DNA of 64,000 nucleotides, taken from Escherichia coli. Its GTDB lineage: Bacteria > Pseudomonadota > Gammaproteobacteria > Enterobacterales > Enterobacteriaceae. The notes under the pieces were generated by a model that saw only the letters and a list, made by a program, of their open reading frames with translations, searched no databases and was not told where the DNA came from. Both the position numbers and the translations under genes were made by a program. The DNA is taken from NCBI RefSeq assembly GCF_041886205.1, contig NZ_CP169029.1. One strand, written 5' to 3'. Of the stretch, positions 1-12,704 are shown piece after piece; positions within the stretch are counted from its first letter, which is position 1; each line of letters starts with the position of its first letter.

Positions 1-651
1 GCTCAAGATATCGGTAAACTGCATTCATCGAGGAAAGTCTCGCCAGATTGGTATTCCAAGTTACCAATCCCTTGGAACAAAACTGTTACTTGGATCGATA
101 GTTCGAGCCCTAATGAAGCAGGTGCAGAAGAACATAAGGGTAATGGTCGTTACTATAATCAACGAGAAGTCCGGCTACTGCTAGAGGCTTTGCAGTCATT
201 GTCGAGTGATGGCTGCATTGCACAGCTTGAGCAAACTATTACCACAGAACAGCCATATCCTATTGGTATAATCACAATGTATCGTCAGCAAAAAGAGGAA
301 ATTGACAATGCTATCAGTCGGGCTGAATGGGCTGCATCGTTACGTGGTTTGATCAAGATCGATACCGTTGATTCATATCAGGGCCATGAAAACAAGATAA
401 TTATCCTCAGTCTGGTTCGCGATAATCCCAACAAACTACAAGGTTTCCTGCGCGACGCGCCGCGAATAAACGTTGCTATTTCGCGAGCTCAAGAAAGGTT
501 ATTGATTCTGGGAGCAAGGCGTATGTGGTCAAAGACCAATAATGATTCAGCACTTGGAAACGTTCATGAATTTATTAGTAAACAGGTTGCAGTAGATGAA
601 CCCAACTACCAAATCCTGTGTGGTCAAAGTCTGCTTGGAGATAACAACTAA
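1..651 (+). CDS. SF1 (Upf1/DNA2-like) helicase, C-terminal part only; 5' end lies upstream of the window
   Basis: Frame 1 is open from position 1 to the stop at 649-651. Translation carries helicase C-terminal motifs (DTVDSYQGHE, INVAISRAQERLLILG) resembling the C-terminal helicase core. Confidence 0.6.
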   Translation, partial: AQDIGKLHSSRKVSPDWYSKLPIPWNKTVTWIDSSSPNEAGAEEHKGNGRYYNQREVRLLLEALQSLSSDGCIAQLEQTITTEQPYPIGIITMYRQQKEEIDNAISRAEWAASLRGLIKIDTVDSYQGHENKIIILSLVRDNPNKLQGFLRDAPRINVAISRAQERLLILGARRMWSKTNNDSALGNVHEFISKQVAVDEPNYQILCGQSLLGDNN

Positions 652-2198
652 TGTCAGAACCACGTCTGGGTAATCTGATTACCGTTTTACTACCTGCGCG
701 TAGTTACAAGATCAACTGCGCTTTGACCACTGAAAAACTGATGCCTGGAATTGAACAGTTTGCATGTCGCTTGCTGCTGATTTTTGATCAACTCTATCCC
801 AGCGAGTTACAGAATTACTTTGGTCTAACTGATCGTGAGCGAGAGGTATTGCTTGATGGGTTGCTGGCTAACAGACTGATCAACATTAATCCTGATGGGC
901 ATATTGAGGCTAGCTCATTCCTACGTAAGCATGCAGCTAATAATGGTGGGAAGCCAAGTTTAGTTAAATATCAAGAATGTACGGAGGAAGTTGCATTCGA
1001 TCTACTAACTCTTTCGATATGTAAACCGCAACCAAATCGTCGTTTTACTTCTGGACTGCCAGAGCTATTGCCGCGGCATCAGATCGGGGGAGATGCTGCT
1101 GCGGTAACAGAGGCTTTTAGTTCCCAGTTTAGGCACCATCTTTTGCTCAGCCGCAACAGCGAGTATGAGCGTCAACGGACTAAATTATATAAGATAATGG
1201 GCTGTAGTTCGCATGAGATGGTGCAGCTCCCAATAGAGATAGAGGTTAGCTACGGTGTTTCTGCTGGGAGCATTGAGCCGCAGAAATTTACTCGTTCCTA
1301 TGAATATTTAGGTAACACCCGGCTGCCGCTTTCAAACGAGCTGGAAGCTCATATCGCAGATTTTTTGGGAGAACATAAACTAGATGAATTCGGTATCGAC
1401 TGTGAAGATTTCTGTAAACTAGCAAATGATAAAGTGTTGTTACAATTTGCTAATGGTTATAAGTTCAACTATTCCGGCTGGATAGAGGCTCGTGAACAAC
1501 GTAAAACTGGCTACGGTACTTCATTGACTACCGGCATGTTAGGGGCTGTTTATTTGCCGCACAATTCTAAGCTGTTCATTAGTATGTTGCATAATGCATT
1601 ACGTGATTATATAGGTAAAACAGCTCCAAAAGCGCTGTGGTATAGCAGTAAAGTACCACTGTGGGGAGCTAATGGTAGTCAACTTTCGCGTTTTACTCGC
1701 GCTCTAGGCGATATACTTGGCAATTATGCCGATGATAAGATTGCTCGCATTTCGCTTTTACACTCAAGTGCAGATGAAGGTGAAAAACGTCAAGAGCGTA
1801 AGCGGCACTTAGGTCGTTTTCCTACCGGTATTGGCCTTACTTCAGAGGCTAAATTTGATCGTTTGGAGATCCTCTTAATTCCTGATGTGATTGCTTTGGT
1901 GCAATACCACGGTCAACCTAATTCTGATAGTGCATTAACCCTGCCGATTGGTTATATAACTGTTGAGCCAGAGCGTTTAGAATTACTTAAAAAACTAATG
2001 ATTAAGCGAACTGAAGGGGCTGTTGCAACCATTACTTGGTCTGAATCAAAATTTGAAAATTTAGCTTCGCTATTACCTGTTGAGTTTCTGATTAAACTGA
2101 ATAAGAAAAGCGGTGAAGATGTGGATGCTGCAATAAAAAAAATGCAGATCTATAACCGTGCTGAAACCGCACGGGCAATTTTATCGCTACGCAAGTAG
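651..2198 (+). CDS. Hypothetical 515-aa protein, translationally coupled to the upstream helicase
   Basis: ATG at 651 overlaps the helicase stop (TAATG); GGAG 13 nt upstream. Long uninterrupted ORF with no catalytic motif I can recognise. Confidence 0.6.
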   Translation: MSEPRLGNLITVLLPARSYKINCALTTEKLMPGIEQFACRLLLIFDQLYPSELQNYFGLTDREREVLLDGLLANRLININPDGHIEASSFLRKHAANNGGKPSLVKYQECTEEVAFDLLTLSICKPQPNRRFTSGLPELLPRHQIGGDAAAVTEAFSSQFRHHLLLSRNSEYERQRTKLYKIMGCSSHEMVQLPIEIEVSYGVSAGSIEPQKFTRSYEYLGNTRLPLSNELEAHIADFLGEHKLDEFGIDCEDFCKLANDKVLLQFANGYKFNYSGWIEAREQRKTGYGTSLTTGMLGAVYLPHNSKLFISMLHNALRDYIGKTAPKALWYSSKVPLWGANGSQLSRFTRALGDILGNYADDKIARISLLHSSADEGEKRQERKRHLGRFPTGIGLTSEAKFDRLEILLIPDVIALVQYHGQPNSDSALTLPIGYITVEPERLELLKKLMIKRTEGAVATITWSESKFENLASLLPVEFLIKLNKKSGEDVDAAIKKMQIYNRAETARAILSLRK

Positions 2199-2412
2199 CA
2201 TTTATATTGCAACGAATAAATTTTTCTAGGTTGCTATGAACTAGCTAAAGGGCAACAAATAGATAAACGGCGTTATTCATGTCAAATGAGATAATGTTAA
2301 ATTGATAGGGATTTATACCCCGCCGGCCATTTTGAATGGTCGGAGTTGTTATAAACGTTAAACCGCCCCGGAAATCCTGGAGACTAAACTCCCTGAGAAA
2401 GAGGTAAACAGG

Positions 2413-2739
2413 ATGACTAAAAATACACGTTTTTCCCCCGAAGTCCGTCAACGGGCAGTTCGTATGGTTCTGGAAAGTCAGGGCGAATATGACTCACAAT
2501 GGACAGCAATTTGTTCTATTGCCCCTAAGATTGGCTGTACACCGGAGACTCTGCACGTCTGGGTACTCCAGCATGAGCAGGATATTGGGGGCGGTGATGG
2601 TGGTTTCACCACCACTGAACGTCAGCGTCTGAAAGAGCTGGAACGTGAAAATCGTGAACTGAGCCGCAGTAACGATATCCTTCGCCAGGCTTCCACTTAT
2701 TTTGCGAAGGCGGAGTTCGACCGCCCCTGGAAAAAATAA
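2413..2739 (+). CDS. IS3-family transposase OrfA (IS629 OrfA-like, 108 aa)
   Basis: Translation MTKNTRFSPEVRQRAVRMVLESQGEYDSQW...LKELERENRELSRSNDILRQAS matches IS629/IS1203 OrfA as I recall it. Confidence 0.75.
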   Translation: MTKNTRFSPEVRQRAVRMVLESQGEYDSQWTAICSIAPKIGCTPETLHVWVLQHEQDIGGGDGGFTTTERQRLKELERENRELSRSNDILRQASTYFAKAEFDRPWKK

Positions 2740-3118
2740 TGCCACTGCTGGATAAGTCGCGTGAGCAGTACGGGATCGGACCGGTATGCAGTGAACTGCA
2801 TATTGCCCCGTCAACGTATTACCACTGTCAGCAACAGCGACATCATCCTGATAAACGCAATGCCCGTGCGCAGCGTGATGACTGGCTGAAGAAAAAGATA
2901 CCGTGCGTATACGATGTGCGTAAAGTCTGGCGTCAGTTGTTTCGGGAAGGTATCAGAGTGGCCAGATGCACTGTGGCACGTCTCATGGCGGTTATGGGGC
3001 TTGTCGGTGTTCTCTGGGGTAAAAGGTCCGCACTACCGTCAGCCGGAAAGCCGTTGCCGTAGACGACCGCGTAAACCGCCAGTTCGGGGCAAAGTCGTGG
3101 GTGGCTGATTTTACTTAC
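2739..3118 (+). pseudogene. IS3-family transposase OrfB, truncated and frameshifted
   Basis: Begins MPLLDKSREQYGIGPVCSELHIAPSTYYHCQQQRHHPDK like IS629 OrfB, but is short of a few residues versus the recalled sequence, stops after 107 aa, and continues in another frame (RQFGAKSWVADFTY) before homology ends. Confidence 0.6.
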
Positions 3119-3690
3119 GGTGTGCCCGGAGTTCAGGGTGAGCACGGATGCTGAAATGAACCATGAGTCTGTCTGGAATATGGAACAGATAACTCATGAC
3201 GAGAAGCCCAACAATCCCACCGGGTGTGACTGTGGTGAACCTGAGCGACTGTGACCTGCGGCATTCCCTAAGGATGATGTAACCCGCTGACAACGGGGAT
3301 TGAGGCGAGATCACTAAGCCGAGATGATCCTCAAGGTTGAGTGCTGAAAGGCTGAAGAACATGAACCCGTTAATCCGCCTCTGTGGGCTGAAAACGTCAC
3401 CACGGCCTACATGATCTGACAGGTCGTGCAGAAGTAACTGTCTGCGACACGTATGCGCGGGTCAGTCAAAGGTGTTCTGACATGTATGCAAAACACCGGG
3501 ACAGCAACGCCTATCACGCTCACGTTGCTGACTTCTGTCAACTTGCGGCAAGCAAGGACAAAGAGTGCGACGGGCAGCCTCCTCAGTATGTATGAGTTCA
3601 GACAGGTGAACTGGGGAAGGTCAGCGACGGATGTTAAGGAGGCAGTAAGCGTCAACGGAGCACCGTATTGACGCTTATTTATTGGTGAGA
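3119..3690 (+). mobile_element. Candidate group II intron 5' fragment (domain I-like structured RNA) inserted in the IS OrfB remnant; no intron-encoded protein ORF
   Basis: Starts GTGTGCCCGGAG...GGGTGAGCACGG immediately after the IS OrfB FTY codons, resembling the GUGYG...GGGUG start of bacterial group II introns. GC-rich, non-coding in all frames. Group II introns are known to target IS elements in E. coli. Confidence 0.25.
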
Positions 3691-3698
3691 ACTACGTT

Positions 3699-3900
3699 TC
3701 ATGGCAGGAGTTCGTCAACACGGTTGGATAGTAATGCACGGCTCAGTTCGACACCCTGTCGGGCAAAGATTTCACTCTGACGATACAGTGGCAGGTGTTC
3801 GCAGTATTTTCCCGTTAACACGCGGGCAAGTAATCCGGGGCCGCGATACCACGCTCTATCGGGCAGGACGGCGCCAATGATAGCATTTATACAAGCAATT
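3699..3900 (-). pseudogene. IS66-family transposase (TnpC) internal fragment
   Basis: Minus-strand translation ...GLLARVLTGKYCEHLPLYRQSEIFARQGVELSR... matches the conserved HLPLYRQSxIxARQGV block of IS66 TnpC, then hits a stop. Far too short for an intact gene. Confidence 0.45.
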
Positions 3901-4227
3901 CTGGGAGCTTATAGATTGTGTGCAAAACTTTTGATAGCAGGAGGTTACAACAGTATTGATGAAAAAGATCATTCAAATCGATTTATATATTTTGTTAATG
4001 TTATCTGTTTTCAATCTAATAACCACGAATATAGCTAATTATAGGATGATTACTAGTTTTGCTACCCTATCAACCAAACGTTCACCGGACATTAGAAAAC
4101 ATGGAAATTTCTTGTTTTTAAATGCTTTTTACACCAATAGAAAAATTTACATTCCAAAATCATTAGTCTTTGCGTAATCAAAAGATGTAATGGTTTTTTT
4201 CCTTACTACTTCTAGATAATCCGCCCA

Positions 4228-4345
4228 CTACAGCAACATCAACTTACGCTCATCTAAATGCTCCGCCTTATGGATATAAGCTACCCGCACTGAATTACAT
4301 TCCATGCGGCTCATCAGACGTCCAGTTGCTTTACTGTCTTCAGGG
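4228..4345 (-). pseudogene. P4-type integrase 3'-terminal fragment (remnant of an older island)
   Basis: Minus-strand translation ...ATGRLMSRMECNSVRVAYIHKAEHLDERKLMLL* aligns with the C-terminus of the intact integrase at 11064..12326 (...AVERQMSHQERNGVRAAYIHKAEHLEERRLMLQ...). No upstream catalytic region. Confidence 0.5.
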
Positions 4346-4584
4346 GGATGCTCTTGTAATCCCAACCTCTCGTGCTTTCTGAGCATAACACATCCATGTT
4401 GCTGCGATTATCTCTTAAACCCGTCCTTACCATTTTTATTGATACGATAAGGAACCTTCATCATACATGATCGATTTTGTCGATCGATTCGATCGAATTT
4501 TCTCTTTTTACCCTGTCTTTTACATGGTTTTAAAATAAGCACCCCATTTATTGTTCGGGGAAAGTGATAGCAGAGGTAACTGAA

Positions 4585-5313
4585 ATGAAAAAGATTATTG
4601 CGGTTTCAGCACTTGCTGTGGCAGGCATGTTTTCAGCCCAGACCCTGGCTGATGAGAGCAAAACAGGCTTTTATATGACCGGTAAGGCGGGAACTTCCGT
4701 TTTATCTCTTTCCAACCAGCGTTTTGTCGAAGGTGAAGGAGAGTGGGCGGACAGATACAAAGGTGACGATGACCATGATACGGTATTCAGTGGCGGTATT
4801 GCGGCCGGTTATGATTTTTATCCGCAGTTCAGTATTCCGGTTCGTACAGAACTGGAGTTTTACGCTCGTGGAAATGCTGACACGAAATATAATCTTTATA
4901 AAGACGACTGGTCGCGTGGTGACCTGAAGAACGAGGTGTCAGTCAACACTCTGATGCTGAATGCGTACTATGACTTCCGGAATGACAGCTCATTCACACC
5001 ATGGGTATCTGCAGGGATTGGCTACGCCAGAATTCACCAGAAAACAACCGGTATCAGTACCTGGGATTACGGGTATGGATACAGTGGTCGTGAATCGTTG
5101 TCACGTTCAGGCTCTGCTGACAACTTCGCATGGAGCCTTGGCGCGGGTGTCCGCTATGACGTCACCCCGGATATCGCTCTGGACCTCAGCTATCGCTATC
5201 TTGATGCGGGTGACAGCAGTGTGAGTTACAAGGGCGAGTGGGGCGATAAATATAAATCAGAGGTTGATGTTAAAAGTCATGACATCCTGCTTGGTGTGAC
5301 TTATAACTTCTGA
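4585..5313 (+). CDS. Outer-membrane beta-barrel protein (OmpA-like/opacity-type family), 242 aa
   Basis: Signal peptide MKKIIAVSALAVAGMFSAQTLA, alternating aromatic/hydrophilic beta-strand pattern, C-terminal ...LLGVTYNF ending in Phe. The ORF-track start at 4564 is probably an upstream extension. Confidence 0.7.
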   Translation: MKKIIAVSALAVAGMFSAQTLADESKTGFYMTGKAGTSVLSLSNQRFVEGEGEWADRYKGDDDHDTVFSGGIAAGYDFYPQFSIPVRTELEFYARGNADTKYNLYKDDWSRGDLKNEVSVNTLMLNAYYDFRNDSSFTPWVSAGIGYARIHQKTTGISTWDYGYGYSGRESLSRSGSADNFAWSLGAGVRYDVTPDIALDLSYRYLDAGDSSVSYKGEWGDKYKSEVDVKSHDILLGVTYNF

Positions 5314-5390
5314 CGACACTGCTTCTGAATGATAATTGCGCATATTTCTGCAATTAAGATAATTACGTATTTCTGTAATTAAAAAGGAAC

Positions 5391-5435
5391 ACCCTGCAGT
5401 AATATTATACTGCAGGGTTGTCTGTTATCTGCTTT
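5391..5435 (+). terminator. Putative rho-independent terminator after the outer-membrane protein gene
   Basis: Perfect 11-bp inverted repeat accctgcagta/tactgcagggt followed by a T-rich tract. Confidence 0.4.
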
Positions 5436-5488
5436 ACAGGATATTTCTGATTTTTATTATCTTATTCTCTTTATATTAAGATATTTCG

Positions 5489-6988
5489 ATGAGTATCATA
5501 AAACTATTTTTTCCGGACAATACATCCCGAATTTTATTGTTTTTATTCTTTTTTGTTGTTTCTGTCATAACCACAATTGCATGCGGATACACTGAGAAGA
5601 ATACCACCGGGAATGTGTTGCTGCTGTTCTTTCTTCTGCTTCTTGCACACAGAAATACCCTCACATCCATTACAGCGCTGTTATTTCTGTTCTGTTGTGC
5701 ACTGTATGCGCCTGCCGGTATGACGTACGGTAAAATCAACAACAGTTTTATTGTCGCGTTGTTGCAGACCACGGCTGATGAGGCAGCGGAGTTTACCGGG
5801 ATGATTCCTGTTTATCATTTTCTGGTCAGTGCCGCGATTCTGGTATTCATGGTGATTTTCTGGCGAACACACCACCGCGGTCACCGTAACTGGCTGGCAC
5901 TGCTGCTATTCGTATTATGCTCTGTAAACAGCTGGCCGTTGCGGATGGTTAAAGGAACCGTTGTGGGGACAACTGACACATTGCGTGAAATGCAGCGTTA
6001 TAAACAACTGAGTCAGCACGGGGCTGACAGCTGGAAAATCCTGCCGGGTGTACCGTTGTATGACACGATTGTTATTGTTACTGGTGAGAGTGTGCGCAGG
6101 GATTATATGTCGGTATATGGCTATCCCGTGCCAACCACACCGTGGCTGAATACTGCTCCCGGTTTATTTATTGACGGCTATACATCGGCAGCAGCCAGTA
6201 CCGTACCTTCCCTGAGCCGGACACTGATTTATGACTATGAGCAGAACCCTGATTCCGGCAACAACGTGGTGGCGCTGGCAGCAAAATCAGGATACAGCAC
6301 ATGGTGGATATCCAATCAGGGAAAACTGGGAGAGCATGACACACGCATCTCTGTTATTGCTTCTGATGCGGAGCATACCGTTTTCCTCAAGAAAGGCAGC
6401 TTCGCTTCCCGTAAAACGGATGATATGTTGTTGTTACAGGAAACAGAACGTGCGCTGGCGGATACATCCTCTCCGAAGGTGATTTTCCTGCACATGATTG
6501 GCTCTCATCCGAATCCGTGTGACCGACTTAACTCCTGGCCGAATCATTACCTGGAGCAGTATCCCCGAAAGATTGCCTGTTACCTCGCCAGCATCAGTAA
6601 ACTGGATAACTTTCTCGGTCAGCTTGATGGTATCCTTCGCCGGCATTCCCGTCATTTCGCCATGCTTTACTTTTCTGACCATGGACTGTCGGTCAGCGAC
6701 AGCGCTAATCCTGTTCATCATGATGGTCATGTGCAGGGAGGCTACAGCGTTCCCCTGATTATTACCGCCAGTGACATCACGTCTCATCAGTCCGTCAGCA
6801 GAAAAATCAGTGCCCGTCATTTCGCAGGTATTTTTCAGTGGCTGACCGGCATTCGTACTGAAAATATACCGCCATTCAATCCGCTGACAGACGAAGATAA
6901 TGAACCCGTTATGGTTTTTAACGGGGAGAGGAATGTACCGGCAGACAGTCTGAAACCGCAGCCTCTGATTCTTCCGGACAGAAGATAA
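5489..6988 (+). CDS. Sulfatase-family phosphoethanolamine transferase-like inner-membrane protein (EptA/YhbX-like), 499 aa
   Basis: N-terminal multi-span hydrophobic region followed by a soluble domain with sulfatase-like signatures (IVTGESVRRDY, HMIGSHPNPCDRL). Exact start codon uncertain. Confidence 0.65.
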   Translation: MSIIKLFFPDNTSRILLFLFFFVVSVITTIACGYTEKNTTGNVLLLFFLLLLAHRNTLTSITALLFLFCCALYAPAGMTYGKINNSFIVALLQTTADEAAEFTGMIPVYHFLVSAAILVFMVIFWRTHHRGHRNWLALLLFVLCSVNSWPLRMVKGTVVGTTDTLREMQRYKQLSQHGADSWKILPGVPLYDTIVIVTGESVRRDYMSVYGYPVPTTPWLNTAPGLFIDGYTSAAASTVPSLSRTLIYDYEQNPDSGNNVVALAAKSGYSTWWISNQGKLGEHDTRISVIASDAEHTVFLKKGSFASRKTDDMLLLQETERALADTSSPKVIFLHMIGSHPNPCDRLNSWPNHYLEQYPRKIACYLASISKLDNFLGQLDGILRRHSRHFAMLYFSDHGLSVSDSANPVHHDGHVQGGYSVPLIITASDITSHQSVSRKISARHFAGIFQWLTGIRTENIPPFNPLTDEDNEPVMVFNGERNVPADSLKPQPLILPDRR

Positions 6989-7096
6989 TCATGTCGGTAT
7001 GAATGTTATAATTAAGGACCGTGCAATAATAGCCATTCCATTCAGCCATCTTACGCTCGAAAACAATCGATAAGATGGCTACTCACCATTCCTGCT

Positions 7097-10000
7097 CTAA
7101 ACCTGACGCCTCTCAAGACTATTATAAATAGCCTCAATCTCACCCTTCAGGTTATCACCGCAATAAACCATTGAGGTATCGTATCGTTCATATCGCGCTT
7201 CCCGTGTCGCACTAAACCAGTTGAACGATCCCACGCACAGCAAACCATCATCACCAATAACAATTTTGCTATGAACACGGTTTACCAGCTTTGTAGCAAT
7301 ACCCAGCGCATTCAGTTTCTCCAGCGCCGCTTTAAAGTTTTGCTGCTTCTCTTTTCGCTTCTCAAAATCATTATGTTCAGTGTTGTAGCTTCTGTCAGTG
7401 ACTATCGTGACGTTAATTCCACGTGAACACGCCGCAATCATGGAATCAAGAAAACCTGTTTGCTCCAGCCTTTGCCAGGTCAGCCATGGAGAAACTATCG
7501 TGATGTGTTTACTGGTATTTTCAAATGTCTGATTCAGGAAATTATCATGTTGCTCCACACCATGAAGTGTGTAGATTTTGGTCCCGGAGGTTTTTAAATC
7601 CTTACGCTCTTTATAATCAAAAGAGAGCGCATTCTTCTCTGACTCAAAGAGGTATTTTGCCAGTAATCCCCGTGGAGATGAGGCTGGCTGGACCTCAAAC
7701 AGGTCCATATCGCCGAAGACCAGAAAACTGTCCTTCGCACGGGAGACTGCAACATTCAGCATGCTGTTATCGCTATCAATAAACCCGCCGTCTTCATGTT
7801 TTGAATAGACTGGCGAGAATATCACAATCGCTCTTTCCGCTCCCTGAAGAGAGTGCACGGTGCCCACTGTGAGCGACTTTTCATTCGAGCCTGTACTGAT
7901 ACCTTGTTTGCCCAGCGCCTGTTTGATAGTGGATACCTGAGCGCTAAAAGGCGTCACGATACCGACAACTTCATGAAGCGATTTACCGTAATGCGCTTCA
8001 ATATTTTGTTGGTTCTCTGCCAACCAGACCGCTATCGTTTCAGCCTCAAGCAAATTATATCGACTTCCACTACTTGCCAGCTCTCCTTTACCATCAATAT
8101 GGAGATACCCCATTGCGGGCATTAAATTGCTCTCTTCACGCCCTCTTTTAGGCAACAACTTACCGTGATAGCAGAGCGTATTACAGTATCCAATAATATT
8201 GTCGTAGCACCGGCGGTGTTCATATAGGGACATACCACGAGCCAGTTCGGGATCATATTGATAGCGCGAAGCAAACTGCGCTATTTTCATAACGCTGCCA
8301 GATGCGGCACTTTTACCAAGGTCTGCGATTGCCGTATATTTCTCGGTAATCTCTTCTTGCGTACTGCCAGACAGAATTTTTTCCGCCAGCATGTTACCGA
8401 CATCAATCGCAGGAGCAATACTCCATATTGGCGGGAGCTGCTCCGTATCGCCAATCACTAATGCCTTCTTAGCTAATGCAAACGAGGCAGCAGCCACTTC
8501 AGGAAGCACCTGCCCGGCTTCATCGACAATGAGTAAATCGGCAAAATCATACAAATAACTTTTCTCGAATTTACGCTGTCCTTTGTGCTCACTTATCTGC
8601 ATATTGCCGGGCAGCATATAGCATGTCATCACCACACATGGAGTGAGTTTCATTCGACGTTGCCAACGGGCAGTTACCCCTTTAGCGCCTTTTTTCTTCT
8701 TCTCTTCCTGCAGATCATCAATGCTGGCCATATCCATCAGCCAACGACCTTCCCAGTAGTGAGTCGTCAGTAAAAATGCAGGGAAGCGAATCTGCGTATC
8801 AGCCAGTTCATCGGCCTGTGAGAAGCTCAGTTCCTCGTCGCCCTCATACCCTAAATTAAGAGCCAGTCTCTGCCACTCCTGAACCGCCTGCTGTTCTTTA
8901 AGAATGATTTCATGGGCGGAATCAATCTGCTGCCGGTATGTTGTTTGCTCGCGCTCAGCGGAATTGAGCAGCCCATCAATATTACGTTCGATAGTTTCAG
9001 GATCAGACCACTGATTTCCTGCAATCAGCGCACCTAATTTATCTTCGAGAAACAGCTGTATTTGGTACTGTCGCTTACTGCGAACCACCGGGAGCCAGGA
9101 AAATAATGAATAGATCAGTGATTCACCGGCGCGATATTTTTTCCATTCCGTTTTAGCACTTTTCAGTAGAGTGATTTTTTGTTCTTGTCCGGAAAGTAAT
9201 TTATTTAAATTATCGAGATATTGCTCAATGTCGTTAGCAATAAGCTCACGCGCAGCCCGTACCTGGCTTAACGTTTGCCATGTTGCGTTCAGTCTTATCA
9301 GTTGCTCGGATTTTGCTGCCAACTGACCATGCAGGAGTTCAATGACCTTTTCAGGGGATGAACAATCTTTTTCAGGAAAGGCTGCCTTAGCCTTCTCCAG
9401 ATAAAACAGCAGTGCATCCTCTACATACTCTTTTGACTCAACCTGGTTGAAGAAATCTTCAGTTTGATATTTTTTGGCTGCCTCAGCTTTACGAGTGCTT
9501 GAGGGAAAATAAGCGCCGAAGCTTTTCAGCTCAGGTAACCATCGTCCGGCCATTGCACCAGTGCCCTGTGAAAAATCTTTCCCGAACGCTTCGATAATGT
9601 TCGTTACAGCCTGGTTGTTCGTTGAAGTCGCGATAATTACCGGAGGCTCAGATTTTTCGAGAGCCGCTCTGGCCCACTGCGTGGCGATGATAGAAAGCAC
9701 CAGCGTGGTTTTTCCGGTTCCCGGAGGTCCATTAACAGCAAGGATATCGCCATGTCTTGCATCCAGAAAATGGCTTAAGGCATCGCGCTGAGCCTTTGCC
9801 AGCGGAAACTTATCTCCGGAGTGTCCAAGCCTGTCGCTGAATTTTGCGCCTGGGGCCAGCAAAGACTCTGCAGCATGAACCTCTCGCGAGGCGAAGCGAT
9901 TGAAGAGCGGCACAACCTTCTTGCAAACAAGCAGGTGATCATAAAGAGAAAGGATATGGAAACAGGCACCGCCAGATTGCGCCGTTTTAACAATATAACC

Positions 10001-10612
10001 GTGCTCAGCGAGTTCATATTGCTCAGGATTTTTAATCCAGTCGCCGGCAACGTTCTTCAGCAGCCTCTCTGAATCATCCAGATATTGACGCCACTCCTGC
10101 TGCAAGGCTGCATATCGTGCTTCCCGTTCTTCATCCGTTTCGGCAGTCTTATCAATGCCGTCATCAAAGTTGATAGAGAACGAGGTATGGATTGTCTTGT
10201 ATTTGTCATACTGCCCAATCTCACCAATCGAAAATGCTCCTTTTGGCAAAGGTTCAAGCAGGTCTCTGGGAATGGAGGTCGCTGGCGTCGGATATAAAAA
10301 ACCCTCACGGCTTAGCAAGGCTGGCGTCACTATCGGGGTAACAATATCAGGCGCGCCTGCGGAACGGTCCTTACCATGCTGCAGTAACCGGAAATAAACT
10401 TTTGGGCGCAAGATGACATCGACCGTTTCGACATCGTCTTTTTCTCCCTTAAAAAATTTACTGACAATCGCTTCGTCAAGACGTCCCGCCGCTATCCCAT
10501 GCCAGTGAGTGAAATTTTTGGCGTCTTTCCGTTCAAAACTGCCCTTTCCTGACTCAGCATCCGCAAGCGAGTTGCGCCAGTATGAGGTAAACCCTAAAGC
10601 ATTTTCATCCAT
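7097..10612 (-). CDS. SF1 helicase (Upf1/DNA2-like) fused to a C-terminal PLD-family (HKD) nuclease domain, 1171 aa; candidate single-gene antiphage defense protein
   Basis: Walker [15 protein letters not shown]; Walker B/motif [11 protein letters not shown]; [11 protein letters not shown]; C-terminal helicase motifs [14 protein letters not shown] and [16 protein letters not shown]; C-terminal [19 protein letters not shown] is an exact HxK(x)4D(x)6GSxN phospholipase-D motif. ATG at 10612..10610 with AGGA upstream. Confidence 0.75.
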
Positions 10613-10665
10613 TACCAGTCCTGTGACTCAATGAAATCCATTGATTTATCGAATATAAAACCACC

Positions 10666-10688
10666 ATATGGACAACTATTGTCCATAT
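10666..10688. promoter_or_regulatory. Perfect 10-bp inverted repeat (atatggacaa-cta-ttgtccatat) 54-76 bp upstream of the helicase-PLD start; candidate operator
   Basis: Palindrome read directly from the sequence, located in the upstream region of the minus-strand gene starting at 10612. Confidence 0.3.
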
Positions 10689-11009
10689 TGAAAAAATTGG
10701 ATGCAATGTTTTGTTTATAATTCGATATCAAATGTACTGGTTGTACAAGGTTCAGAACACAAGCACATTCAACAGTACGTCAGGACTATTGATTTCATAA
10801 CAGTGAATACATTTTTTACCGTTTATAATGACTGCCTGTGTTGGACAAGGATACCAGAACAGCCGAAAACACCGGGGGTTATTACCTGCTCTCATGGAAA
10901 CCAGATATTCCTGGTGCTAATCACAGTCATAAATAGCCTGAAGAACATGACGAAGGGACTTTAATGGACGCCGGAGTAACTTGCCAGAACATCAATCTTC
11001 GTCATCATT

Positions 11010-11060
11010 TACAAAGAAAAATAATCAGTTAAAGCAGTCCGGGCTGATTGCCCGGACTGC
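11010..11060 (-). terminator. Putative rho-independent terminator downstream of the integrase
   Basis: Perfect inverted repeat gcagtccggg/cccggactgc immediately after the integrase stop, followed on the minus strand by a T-rich tract. Confidence 0.45.
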
Positions 11061-11063
11061 TTA

Positions 11064-12326
11064 CTATTTTAATGGATTGTTAATTTTTGCATATTCAAAC
11101 GGACTGATACCCTTCTCCCGGTTCGCATCCAGAAAATCGGCCCACCATTGCAACATCAGTCGCCGTTCTTCCAGATGTTCTGCTTTATGGATATACGCAG
11201 CACGTACACCATTACGCTCCTGATGGCTCATCTGACGTTCCACAGCATCGCGGGACCACAAACCTGATTCAATCAATGCACTGCACGCCATCGCCCGGAA
11301 TCCATGGCCACAGACATCCTGGGTTGTGTCATACCCCATCACCCTCAGGGCTTTATTTACAGTATTTTCACTGATTGGTTTACGCGGGTCATGTGCTCCC
11401 GTAAAGATCAGACCATTTTCACCAGCCCATGTCTGTAGTTCTGCCAGTATGGCTACAGCCTGTTTGCTGAGTGGCACAAGATGTGGTGTTCGCATCTTGG
11501 AGCCCCGGTGTGAGAATTTTACGCCAGGCAGAGGTTCGCGTTCGGCTGGAATAGTCCACATGGCATTGTCAATATCAATTTCAGACCAGCGGGCGTATCT
11601 GAGTTCACTGGAACGAATAAAAACCAGTAAATTCAGCATAACTGCCAGTCGGGTGACAGGCTGGCCTTTATAACCGTCAATACGCGACAGAAGTTCAGGC
11701 AGGCGTGAAAGATCCAGTGCAGGGCGATGCTGGCGTTTTACCGTGGTCAATGCACCAGCCATATCCAGAGCCGGGTTATATCTGATGATGCCAGACTGTA
11801 CGGCATAACGCATTACAGCAGATATTCTTTGCTGCAGACGACTGGCGATTTCATAAATTTGTTTAGCTTCTGCAGCACGAACAGGGATAAGCAGGTCCGG
11901 GGTACTGAGTGTTGTGATATCCCGGTTGCCGATAAAGGGGAAAACGTGTGTCTCGAGGCTTTTGAGTACTTTATCGCTGTGTGATTGTGCCCATTGTTTA
12001 TTACTGGCATGCCAGCGTCGTGCAATATGTTCAAAAGAGAGTTGTAAATCAGGGACTACTTTTTTAGCTCTTTTCAGTTCGCAAGGGTCAATCCCCTCCG
12101 AAATCAGTTTTCGGGCCTCATCCCGTTTTGTACGAGCTTCGGAGAGAGAAACTTCTGGATACACACCAAGTGCCAGAGTCTTCTCCTTACCCAGAATACG
12201 ATAACGGAGACGCCAGTAACGGGAACCATTAGGATGAACCAGTAGGAACATGCCAGCCCCGTCAGTGAGTTTATAAGCCTTGTCAGTGGGCTTTGCAGCC
12301 CGGATTTTTGCGTCAGTCAGTGCCAT
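11064..12326 (-). CDS. P4-type phage integrase (tyrosine recombinase), island integrase next to tRNA-Phe
   Basis: Translation from the internal Met: MALTDAKIRAAKPTDKAYKLTDGAGMFLLVHPNGSRYWRLRYR... (typical P4-family N-terminus); C-terminal catalytic region with HGFRAMA...YIHKAEHLEERR. The ORF-track start at 12389 is an upstream extension. Confidence 0.85.
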   Translation of the reverse strand: MALTDAKIRAAKPTDKAYKLTDGAGMFLLVHPNGSRYWRLRYRILGKEKTLALGVYPEVSLSEARTKRDEARKLISEGIDPCELKRAKKVVPDLQLSFEHIARRWHASNKQWAQSHSDKVLKSLETHVFPFIGNRDITTLSTPDLLIPVRAAEAKQIYEIASRLQQRISAVMRYAVQSGIIRYNPALDMAGALTTVKRQHRPALDLSRLPELLSRIDGYKGQPVTRLAVMLNLLVFIRSSELRYARWSEIDIDNAMWTIPAEREPLPGVKFSHRGSKMRTPHLVPLSKQAVAILAELQTWAGENGLIFTGAHDPRKPISENTVNKALRVMGYDTTQDVCGHGFRAMACSALIESGLWSRDAVERQMSHQERNGVRAAYIHKAEHLEERRLMLQWWADFLDANREKGISPFEYAKINNPLK

Positions 12327-12486
12327 AGTATAGCCTTCTGAATGCGTTAAAGAGGGTACAAATTCTGTCGAACTGGGGTATGCCCGCAATTATACCCACA
12401 CAATGGGGTTGATGTGGGGGGAATCTGGTTGAGTTCGGTAGAATTGATTTGTAGGTAGAACGCTTAAATTGTGGCGTTCTGAAACG

Positions 12487-12513
12487 AAAAACGGACCTCC
12501 GTGGAGGTCCGTT
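12487..12513 (-). terminator. Rho-independent terminator of tRNA-Phe
   Basis: Hairpin acggacctcc/ggaggtccgt directly 3' of the tRNA on the minus strand, followed by a TTTTTCGTTT run. Confidence 0.5.
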
Positions 12514-12523
12514 GATATGAATT

Positions 12524-12599
12524 TGGTGCCCGGACTCGGAATCGAACCAAGGACACGGGGATTTTCAATCCCCTGCTCTACCGACTGAGCTATCCGGGC
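12524..12599 (-). tRNA. pheV: tRNA-Phe (pheV locus by synteny with yqgA-speC)
   Basis: Reverse complement reads GCCCGGATAGCTCAGTCGGTAGAGCAGGGGATTGAAAATCCCCGTGTCCTTGGTTCGATTCCGAGTCCGGGCACCA, the E. coli tRNA-Phe sequence including CCA. Confidence 0.95.
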
Positions 12600-12704
12600 A
12601 ACGGGGCGCATTAAACCTGATTCGCCTCGTCTCGTCAATCAAATTTCTTCAATTTACTGCAGACTGCACAATCTATCATCACTTTGCCGCTATTGCACGC
12701 ATTG

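Follow-up and report, generated by a model that had tools for sequence, protein, structure and literature searches.

In Escherichia coli, the genomic island GI-pheV is known as a modular mosaic that evolves by insertion, deletion and recombination and has the integrase gene intP4 next to the tRNA gene (PMC11537424), and additional integrases as well as integrase remnants are documented inside pheV islands (PMC3408504). Another relevant group is constituted by the integrase-only defence islands, which are known occupants of E. coli integration hotspots (Hochhauser et al. 2023, PMC10121019). A further point of reference is provided by arrays of islands arranged in tandem at one tRNA gene. In addition, P4-like satellites reportedly possess defence hotspots of their own, a description attributed to Rousset et al. 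in 2022.

The locus described here is part of a genomic island in a stretch of 64,000 nucleotides of E. coli DNA, hereafter referred to as the window. The one tRNA gene of the window is a tRNA-Phe gene, which is recognized as pheV because yqgA, speC and chromosomal backbone lie to its right, and the island extends from 12.4 kb leftwards past the left edge of the window. Its features, from the tRNA gene leftwards, are as follows:

12524-12599, minus strand: tRNA-Phe (pheV), the attachment site, called by ARAGORN, with yqgA and chromosomal backbone beyond
11064-12326, minus strand: intact P4-type integrase (Pfam Arm-DNA-bind_3, Phage_int_M and Phage_integrase; PGAP 'tyrosine-type recombinase/integrase')
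7097-10612, minus strand: MkoC, a putative single-gene Mokosh type II system (helicase plus PLD nuclease; PADLOC, Pfam)
5489-6988, plus strand: phosphoethanolamine transferase (ept), part of the conserved island head (Pfam Sulfatase and EptA_B_N; PGAP)
4585-5313, plus strand: Tia/Hek-like beta-barrel outer-membrane protein (OMP), part of the conserved island head (Pfam OMP_b-brl, E 1e-24)
4334-4584, no strand: conserved spacer, i.e. the OMP upstream region, to which every relic allele is fused in allele alignments
4147-4333, minus strand: relic of a P4-type tyrosine integrase gene, consisting of its last 61 codons and the natural stop
3866-4146, minus strand: integrase-druA intergenic remnant of a lost Druantia type I operon, 281 bp, 32% GC
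3714-3874, minus strand: IS66-family transposase fragment, which cuts the Druantia-side relic (PGAP annotation of strain ZYB39 mapped on)
2413-3118, plus strand: IS3-family transposase pseudogene with a frameshift pseudoknot (ZYB39 PGAP annotation mapped on; IS629-type matches)
1-2198, plus strand: putative Mokosh type I system, MkoA (ends at 651, cut by the window edge) and MkoB (651-2198, 515 aa)

The OMP gene is labelled 'tia' in related islands, and IS66 matches cover window positions 3400-3875. An island that is 99.9% identical to window 1-12647 resides in strain ZYB39, but at pheU rather than pheV; the composite has therefore moved as a single block, by transfer or re-integration, at least once. 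In ZYB39, IS100 lies inside the OMP gene and homology to the window stops 48 bp past the tRNA.

Compared with GI-pheV and the pheU/pheV pathogenicity islands, as portrayed in the portions of the literature considered here, the locus shares the pheV site, an intP4-type integrase beside the tRNA and modules separated by IS debris. Those same portions of the GI-pheV descriptions, however, present intP4 as the only conserved gene and mention neither a conserved integrase relic on the tia upstream region nor anti-phage cargo behind such a relic. Like tandem arrays, the window carries two integrase genes of the same orientation, the intact one by the tRNA; in other genomes the head occurs without the relic, with other cargo behind it, and units of integrase and cargo occur alone, next to tRNA-Leu. 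Unlike such arrays, it is devoid of an internal attachment repeat, about 85% of its second integrase is deleted, and the arrangement is a scaffold inherited from long ago and not a recent stacking of two mobile units. With regard to integrase-only defence islands, the resemblance concerns the intact counterparts of the relic unit, which consist of an integrase and a defence system without other mobility genes, the cargo beginning right after the integrase stop. In the window, by contrast, the integrase of this unit is a relic of 187 nt, situated behind another integrase-headed module at tRNA-Phe. Finally, a P4-family integrase and variable anti-phage cargo at a fixed position are features shared with the hotspots of P4-like satellites; psu, delta, sid and alpha, however, are not among the annotated features of the islands inspected, as judged from annotations only, and the conserved frame is formed here by integrase, ept, tia-like OMP and relic.

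The sequence-only reading of this DNA had proposed a decayed integrase 3' fragment at 4228-4345, homologous to the C-terminus of the intact integrase and in the same orientation. Both the homology and the shared minus-strand orientation are borne out, and the position of the relic coincides exactly with a module border. Translated on the minus strand, 4228-4345 reads ...VRVAYIHKAEHLDERKLMLL* as stated there. The fragment is identical to the intact integrase at 35 of 57 residues (61%; BLASTP, E 7e-23) and aligns to approximately residues 362-418 of this roughly 420-residue protein, while 4211-4321 matches 11128-11238 with 70% nucleotide identity over 111 nt (E 1e-10). A tblastn search of window 4000-4700 with the intact integrase returned a single match, 4329 to 4159 (E 4e-19). 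The proposed range turned out to be too short: the TAG at 4228-4230 is an internal stop at the position of a Trp codon and is followed by 26 further in-frame codons of homology down to the natural stop at 4147-4149. Since homology starts at 4333, where the truncation junction reads 'TAAAGC' (4333-4328), and continues in frame to 4147-4149, the true span of the relic is 4147-4333.

By C-terminal homology the fragment belongs to the P4/CP4-57-type tyrosine integrases, and the same stretch of ZYB39 is labelled by PGAP as an 'integrase; internal stop; missing N-terminus' pseudogene. The N-terminal arm-DNA-binding and central domains (PF13356, PF22022) are absent from the fragment, in agreement with the tblastn match in 4000-4700 being confined to about residues 362-418, and Pfam detects no family in the 60-aa fragment, compared with all three domains in the intact gene. 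In the intact protein the HGFR motif precedes the truncation point, so that the relic retains only the ...MS(H>R)...AYIH segment; the complete catalytic set (Arg, Lys, His-x-x-Arg, His, Tyr) is not present in an open frame of the relic. Its catalytic residues, including the presumed nucleophile Tyr, are assigned here on the assumption that lambda Int is a suitable analogue, and judging by the general catalytic layout of tyrosine recombinases an active enzyme would not be expected to arise from it. The stretch 4147-4333 is thus a non-functional relic of a second P4-type integrase gene.

With 61% protein and 70% nucleotide identity to the resident gene, the relic derives from a different integrase and is not a copy of that gene. 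At the protein level it is 70-72% identical to integrases of Lelliottia and Shimwellia, and an intact, nearly identical parent was not encountered in E. coli, where the best intact genes reach about 82% over 105 nt. A word-indexed protein search with the relic yielded five short fragments only. In an exhaustive search of the 60-aa relic against 1.84 billion representative proteins, the best matches were overwhelmingly ORFs of 45-160 aa, mostly C-terminal, and the best full-length match was 57% identical; hence, C-terminal scraps of P4-type integrases appear to be common in public genomes. An exact degenerate DNA pattern for the distinctive WADYLEVVRKKT peptide of the relic had no match among species-representative genomes, and intact integrase-Druantia islands were located via a DruA search instead, namely in Lelliottia and Shimwellia.

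The truncation is by no means confined to the window. When a probe of 426 nt comprising relic and spacer was searched against 5426 complete E. coli genomes, at least 444 of them matched it collinearly along 80% or more of its length; about a dozen of these loci were inspected by eye, and the junction was seen at pheV, pheU and leuX. The allele of the window itself occurs in 13 genomes only, and diverged relic alleles in other genomes are 67-82% identical and located at the same position. In an alignment of the junctions of the window (whose allele was represented a second time by E62), Z1324PEC0010, SCU-102, EC_J_9 and EC17CM12, all five relic loci start at 'TAAAGC', where intact genes read GGATGC or CGATGC, and strain 165 displays the same junction. 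The cargo differs between strains immediately 3' of the relic stop codon: dptFGH is found in Z1324PEC0010, a type I restriction-modification system together with an AAA ATPase in SCU-102 and EC_J_9, a phosphorothioate-dependent nuclease in EC17CM12 (leuX) and a truncated second ept in strain 165. Because the same junction recurs in at least 444 genomes at three tRNA loci, the truncation is single and ancient, and its presence at pheV, pheU and leuX implies that the segment from integrase through relic travels as one scaffold. The relic is therefore an old feature common to hundreds of strains and not a sign of recent island stacking in this one.

Every aligned relic is fused to the same sequence of roughly 220 bp upstream of the OMP gene, with the exception that relic alleles of types B and C lack 34 nt corresponding to window 4334-4367, which the window shares in part with strain MB31. 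An ATCGAT-rich palindromic motif at 4469-4497 (GATCGATTTTGTCGATCGATTCGATCGAA, containing TCGATCGA twice as an octamer) is conserved nearly without change in every spacer allele, its flanks diverging to about 72%, and may represent a regulator-binding site; a promoter-like site at 4507-4536 on the plus strand, recognized by consensus match only, lies between this motif and the OMP start at 4585. A terminator scan marks 4480-4496 as a hairpin. Strain MB31 has no relic, and an hns-like pseudogene lies behind its spacer; this pseudogene of the H-NS family (5617-5988 of the extracted locus) is joined at the equivalent of window 4347, its start codon abutting the spacer, and many strains combine the same head and spacer with an H-NS-family pseudogene. 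The spacer may formerly have functioned as a divergent promoter region, with the OMP gene on one side and an hns-like gene on the other. Likewise, PU-1 and CFIAFB20190167 feature the same head without relic, with the pap operon or subAB behind it. Since head and spacer recur with other sequences behind them, the head is a conserved unit that stops at a defined point near 4334-4347. An interpretation of the spacer as decayed integrase body was rejected, as tblastn reveals no other integrase segment and the spacer accompanies the OMP gene in islands devoid of the relic.

Intact-integrase counterparts of the relic unit, i.e. stand-alone units of integrase and cargo, all adjoin tRNA-Leu (leuX in the E. 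coli strains) and not tRNA-Phe. In Ecol_244 the integrase is followed by the phosphorothioate nuclease, with 93% identity over 1058 bp to relic and cargo of EC17CM12; in SW071610 the intact integrase precedes dptFGH, and in Lelliottia and Shimwellia it precedes druA onward. Conversely, the head without relic occurs at pheV, always with other cargo behind it (MB31, PU-1, CFIAFB20190167).

For the window, these comparisons point to Druantia as the former cargo. Positions 3866-4600 are 98.8% identical in twelve other complete genomes (e.g. E62 and OW848980), where the order, as derived from two genomes, is pheV, integrase, ept, OMP, relic and druA-druE, the 1171-aa gene being absent. DruA with exactly this sequence abounds in public assemblies, and 10 of the 10 matches listed show the same order at pheV or pheU. 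Homology of the window to E62-type islands ends at 3866, where IS66 debris starts, and the druA-druE operon is not present behind the relic in the window, which contains the 281-bp druA-upstream region and then IS66 debris. As E62-type islands match up to 3866 and continue there with druA, 3866-4146 is the leftover integrase-druA intergenic region; the relic tail and the 281 bp below it also resemble the intact-integrase Druantia islands of Lelliottia and Shimwellia. The lineage of the window thus once possessed Druantia type I and lost it at the IS66-associated breakpoint at 3866.

The relics themselves are mosaic. Their first 30-50 nt group with other relics and share derived bases (TAAAGC, CTG, TCAGTGC) that are absent from every intact integrase examined, while the remaining tail groups with intact integrases having the same downstream cargo, and this split grouping indicates recombination inside the relic. 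For instance, the B-type relic agrees with the intact integrase of Ecol_244 at 37 of 51 positions in the first segment and at 126 of 130 in the tail (Fisher p 5.6e-6); the homology extends about 870 bp into the common nuclease cargo, and its end coincides exactly with the truncation point. The relic of strain 165 matches the B type at 40 of 40 spacer positions and 27 of the first 28 nt of the relic but only at 67% of the rest, which is 89% identical to the head-type intact integrase instead (p 0.001) and leads into a truncated ept arranged as in the head. In the allele of the window, the first 52 nt resemble other relics most (82%, as against 60% to the Lelliottia integrase), and the last 135 nt the Druantia-linked integrases of Lelliottia and Shimwellia (78-79%, as against 68% to B relics); the signal is weak here (p 0.009 and 0.067 on the 52- and 135-nt segments), the closest intact relative of this allele being only 79% identical. 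The simplest reading of these identity patterns would be that the relic has recombined with the 3' ends of other integrase genes, the cargo moving with the tail, although such an exchange could also have produced the intact integrase of Ecol_244.

The explanation that accounts best for the locus as a whole, and which is probably correct in its outline, combines an ancestral fusion, an inherited scaffold, cargo exchange at the relic arm, loss of Druantia and insertion of Mokosh modules. A single founding event would have fused an island of the type 'integrase then cargo', cut at about codon 360, to the end of the conserved head, whose order is tRNA, intact integrase, optional cargo, ept, tia-like OMP and OMP upstream spacer. 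The simplest route would be tandem stacking, followed by deletion of the internal attachment repeat together with about 1.08 kb of integrase. Since no intermediate was found in which the head is followed by an internal tRNA repeat and a second integrase of full length, tandem insertion by an integrase is inferred as the founding event, and illegitimate recombination could have produced the same junction. The scaffold would then have been inherited and spread among pheV, pheU and leuX islands, the relic serving since then as the passive tRNA-side homology arm of a cargo slot. Crossovers with other integrase 3' ends within the conserved RQMSH...AYIHKAEH stretch would swap the tail along with the adjacent downstream cargo, in this presumed direction; the cargoes seen comprise Druantia, DptFGH, the type I restriction-modification system with AAA ATPase, the phosphorothioate-dependent nuclease and a second ept copy. 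A far-side homology arm anchoring the cargo slot, which double-crossover replacement requires, was not identified. In the lineage of the window, the tail and 281 bp would have been obtained from an integrase-Druantia island before an IS66-associated deletion at 3866 removed the Druantia operon, while Mokosh II, 3' of the intact integrase, and the IS-flanked Mokosh I at the left edge would be independent insertions.

An alternative origin of the common junction would be recurrent site-directed events, in which the head, or the OMP upstream spacer, repeatedly inserts into or recombines with P4-type integrase genes near codon 360, each cargo type thus having its own, independently truncated integrase. 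It draws on two observations: the tails of the relics agree with various intact integrases as far as the junction or close to it, and the cargo differs directly after the relic stop codon. On the contrary, independent truncations do not account for the derived bases that unite the first 30-50 nt of the relics and set them apart from every intact integrase examined, nor for the relic of strain 165, which is of B type for 27 of 28 nt before its switch, and neither a recombinase nor a site motif for such targeting was seen. Recurrent targeting is hence considered improbable.

Equally improbable is the model initially derived from the letters alone, according to which a newer island spanning 4.4-12.4 kb was inserted at pheV and displaced an older one, whose integrase was truncated and to which the helicase gene and its 515-aa partner would belong. 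The common orientation of intact gene and relic, the position of the relic on the module border and the existence of islands with the head but without the relic accord with this model. It is nevertheless largely refuted by the shared junction: a recent, strain-specific event is at odds with an identical junction and spacer that at least 444 complete genomes possess, that were seen at three tRNA loci and whose alleles are 67-82% identical, and the whole 12.6 kb recur with 99.9% identity at pheU in ZYB39. Moreover, the degenerate copy of the tRNA-Phe 3' end that had been expected at 4340-4580 does not exist. With up to three mismatches, the 23-nt 3' end of tRNA-Phe was found only at the tRNA itself; Smith-Waterman alignment of the tRNA end and flank gave a best score of 13 in 4300-4600 (shuffle mean 14.2) and of 20, over about 10 nt, in 1-12400, and neither this nor blastn-short with the tRNA and its flanks against the island exceeded chance. 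Thus, an internal attachment direct repeat between the two integrase units was not found in window 1-12400, where both integrase genes or relics lie on the minus strand and the intact one adjoins tRNA-Phe. Tandem stacking accordingly captures the likely origin of the relic, while the date, the cargo and the repeat that had been assigned to it are wrong.

The displacement model also fails with respect to the modules it invokes. The DNA directly below the relic corresponds to the upstream region of Druantia and not to Mokosh I, so that Druantia was the cargo of the truncated integrase, and the helicase gene with its 515-aa partner is an IS-flanked Mokosh I module that occurs elsewhere with its own integrase scrap. 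MkoB is recognized by PADLOC (E 1e-61), and its full-length partner of 1652 aa in ZYB39, of which the window retains the last 650 nt, is MkoA (PADLOC, 1304 bits). Among the genomes, 69 contain the MkoA/MkoB pair. IS fragments and a separate mid-gene integrase scrap flank the pair in ZYB39 as well as in strain 165, and in the latter it is far from the relic. This third integrase scrap, which lacks both ends, is located just upstream of mkoA (1330-1485 in ZYB39 and 9330-9485 in strain 165, in extracted-locus numbering), about 4.5 kb left of the window start. MkoC, on the other hand, is a protein of 1171 aa (PADLOC 1684 bits over residues 1-1169; Pfam AAA_11, AAA_12 and PLDc_2), whose cassette occupies approximately 6981-11038 (roughly 4.06 kb). 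The insertion borders of this cassette were mapped; it begins some 25 nt beyond the stop codon of the intact integrase, and E62-type islands lack it. By these matches, both Mokosh I and Mokosh II qualify as putative defence systems. The region from 4.4 to 12.4 kb is consequently a composite with the MkoC cassette inserted into it rather than one newer island, and as its modules are separable in other genomes, the 12 kb do not always move as one unit. The assignment of the helicase-PLD gene and of the helicase with its 515-aa partner to different acquisitions, in contrast, has proven correct: Mokosh I and Mokosh II were acquired separately, and neither is cargo of the truncated integrase. Because MkoC lies directly behind the intact integrase, variable defence cargo occurs 3' of the intact integrase as well as of the relic, and with MkoA/MkoB and MkoC one island houses both Mokosh types in different slots.

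A retention of the fragment for its function, either as a 52-aa ORF (4228-4386, minus strand) or as a promoter or regulatory element of the downstream defence cargo, is even less likely. This ORF is a chimera of spacer and relic that gene callers predict in several assemblies, and the relic persists across alleles of 67-82% identity, both of which would suit a functional role. The lesions, however, vary from allele to allele: the window has a stop, E62 additionally a frameshift, SCU-102 and EC_J_9 have lost 1 nt, and Z1324PEC0010 combines a frameshift with a 12-nt deletion; such different disabling lesions imply that coding is not under selection, and as the frame is not conserved in other relic alleles the ORF is probably not a gene. 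Moreover, the N-terminus of the ORF is encoded by a part of the spacer that B and C alleles lack. With regard to a regulatory role, Rfam returned nothing in 3700-4700, promoter and terminator scans of the same interval gave nothing meaningful, with promoter-like sites no commoner than chance, and ISEc18-bearing derivatives that have lost the OMP gene and the relic still keep Druantia. Lastly, a chance or low-complexity resemblance to integrases, for which the shortness of the segment and the missing Pfam domain might speak, can be dismissed in view of the BLASTP, tblastn and blastn E values given above, an alignment that is collinear up to the natural stop and the PGAP call as integrase pseudogene.

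Taken on its own, the relic is an ordinary pseudogene that is already contained in the RefSeq annotation, and its value is that of a marker. It delineates the border between the conserved head, consisting of integrase, ept and tia-like OMP, and a strain-variable slot, whereas relic-less islands carry virulence modules such as pap or subAB behind the head instead. A description of the junction between relic and tia spacer, or of cargo exchange by crossovers inside the relic, was not found in the literature considered here; together they represent a modest, testable addition and not a new kind of system. The mosaicism of the relic offers a testable route by which defence systems could pass between integrase-only islands and large pathogenicity islands, namely homologous recombination in integrase 3' ends. 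How integrase-only defence islands mobilise was left open by the survey of E. coli hotspots (PMC10121019). It is conceivable, though for the time being a tentative proposal that falls somewhat short of being probable, that relic and tia spacer form a conserved 'landing pad' in composite tRNA-Phe and leuX islands, in which the 187 nt act as a homology arm capturing anti-phage systems from integrase-only islands through crossovers in the conserved stretch encoding the catalytic tyrosine. If true, this would explain the spread of 'integrase-only' defence islands without mobility functions of their own, and it would couple the gene pools of virulence and defence islands in roughly a tenth of E. 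coli strains.
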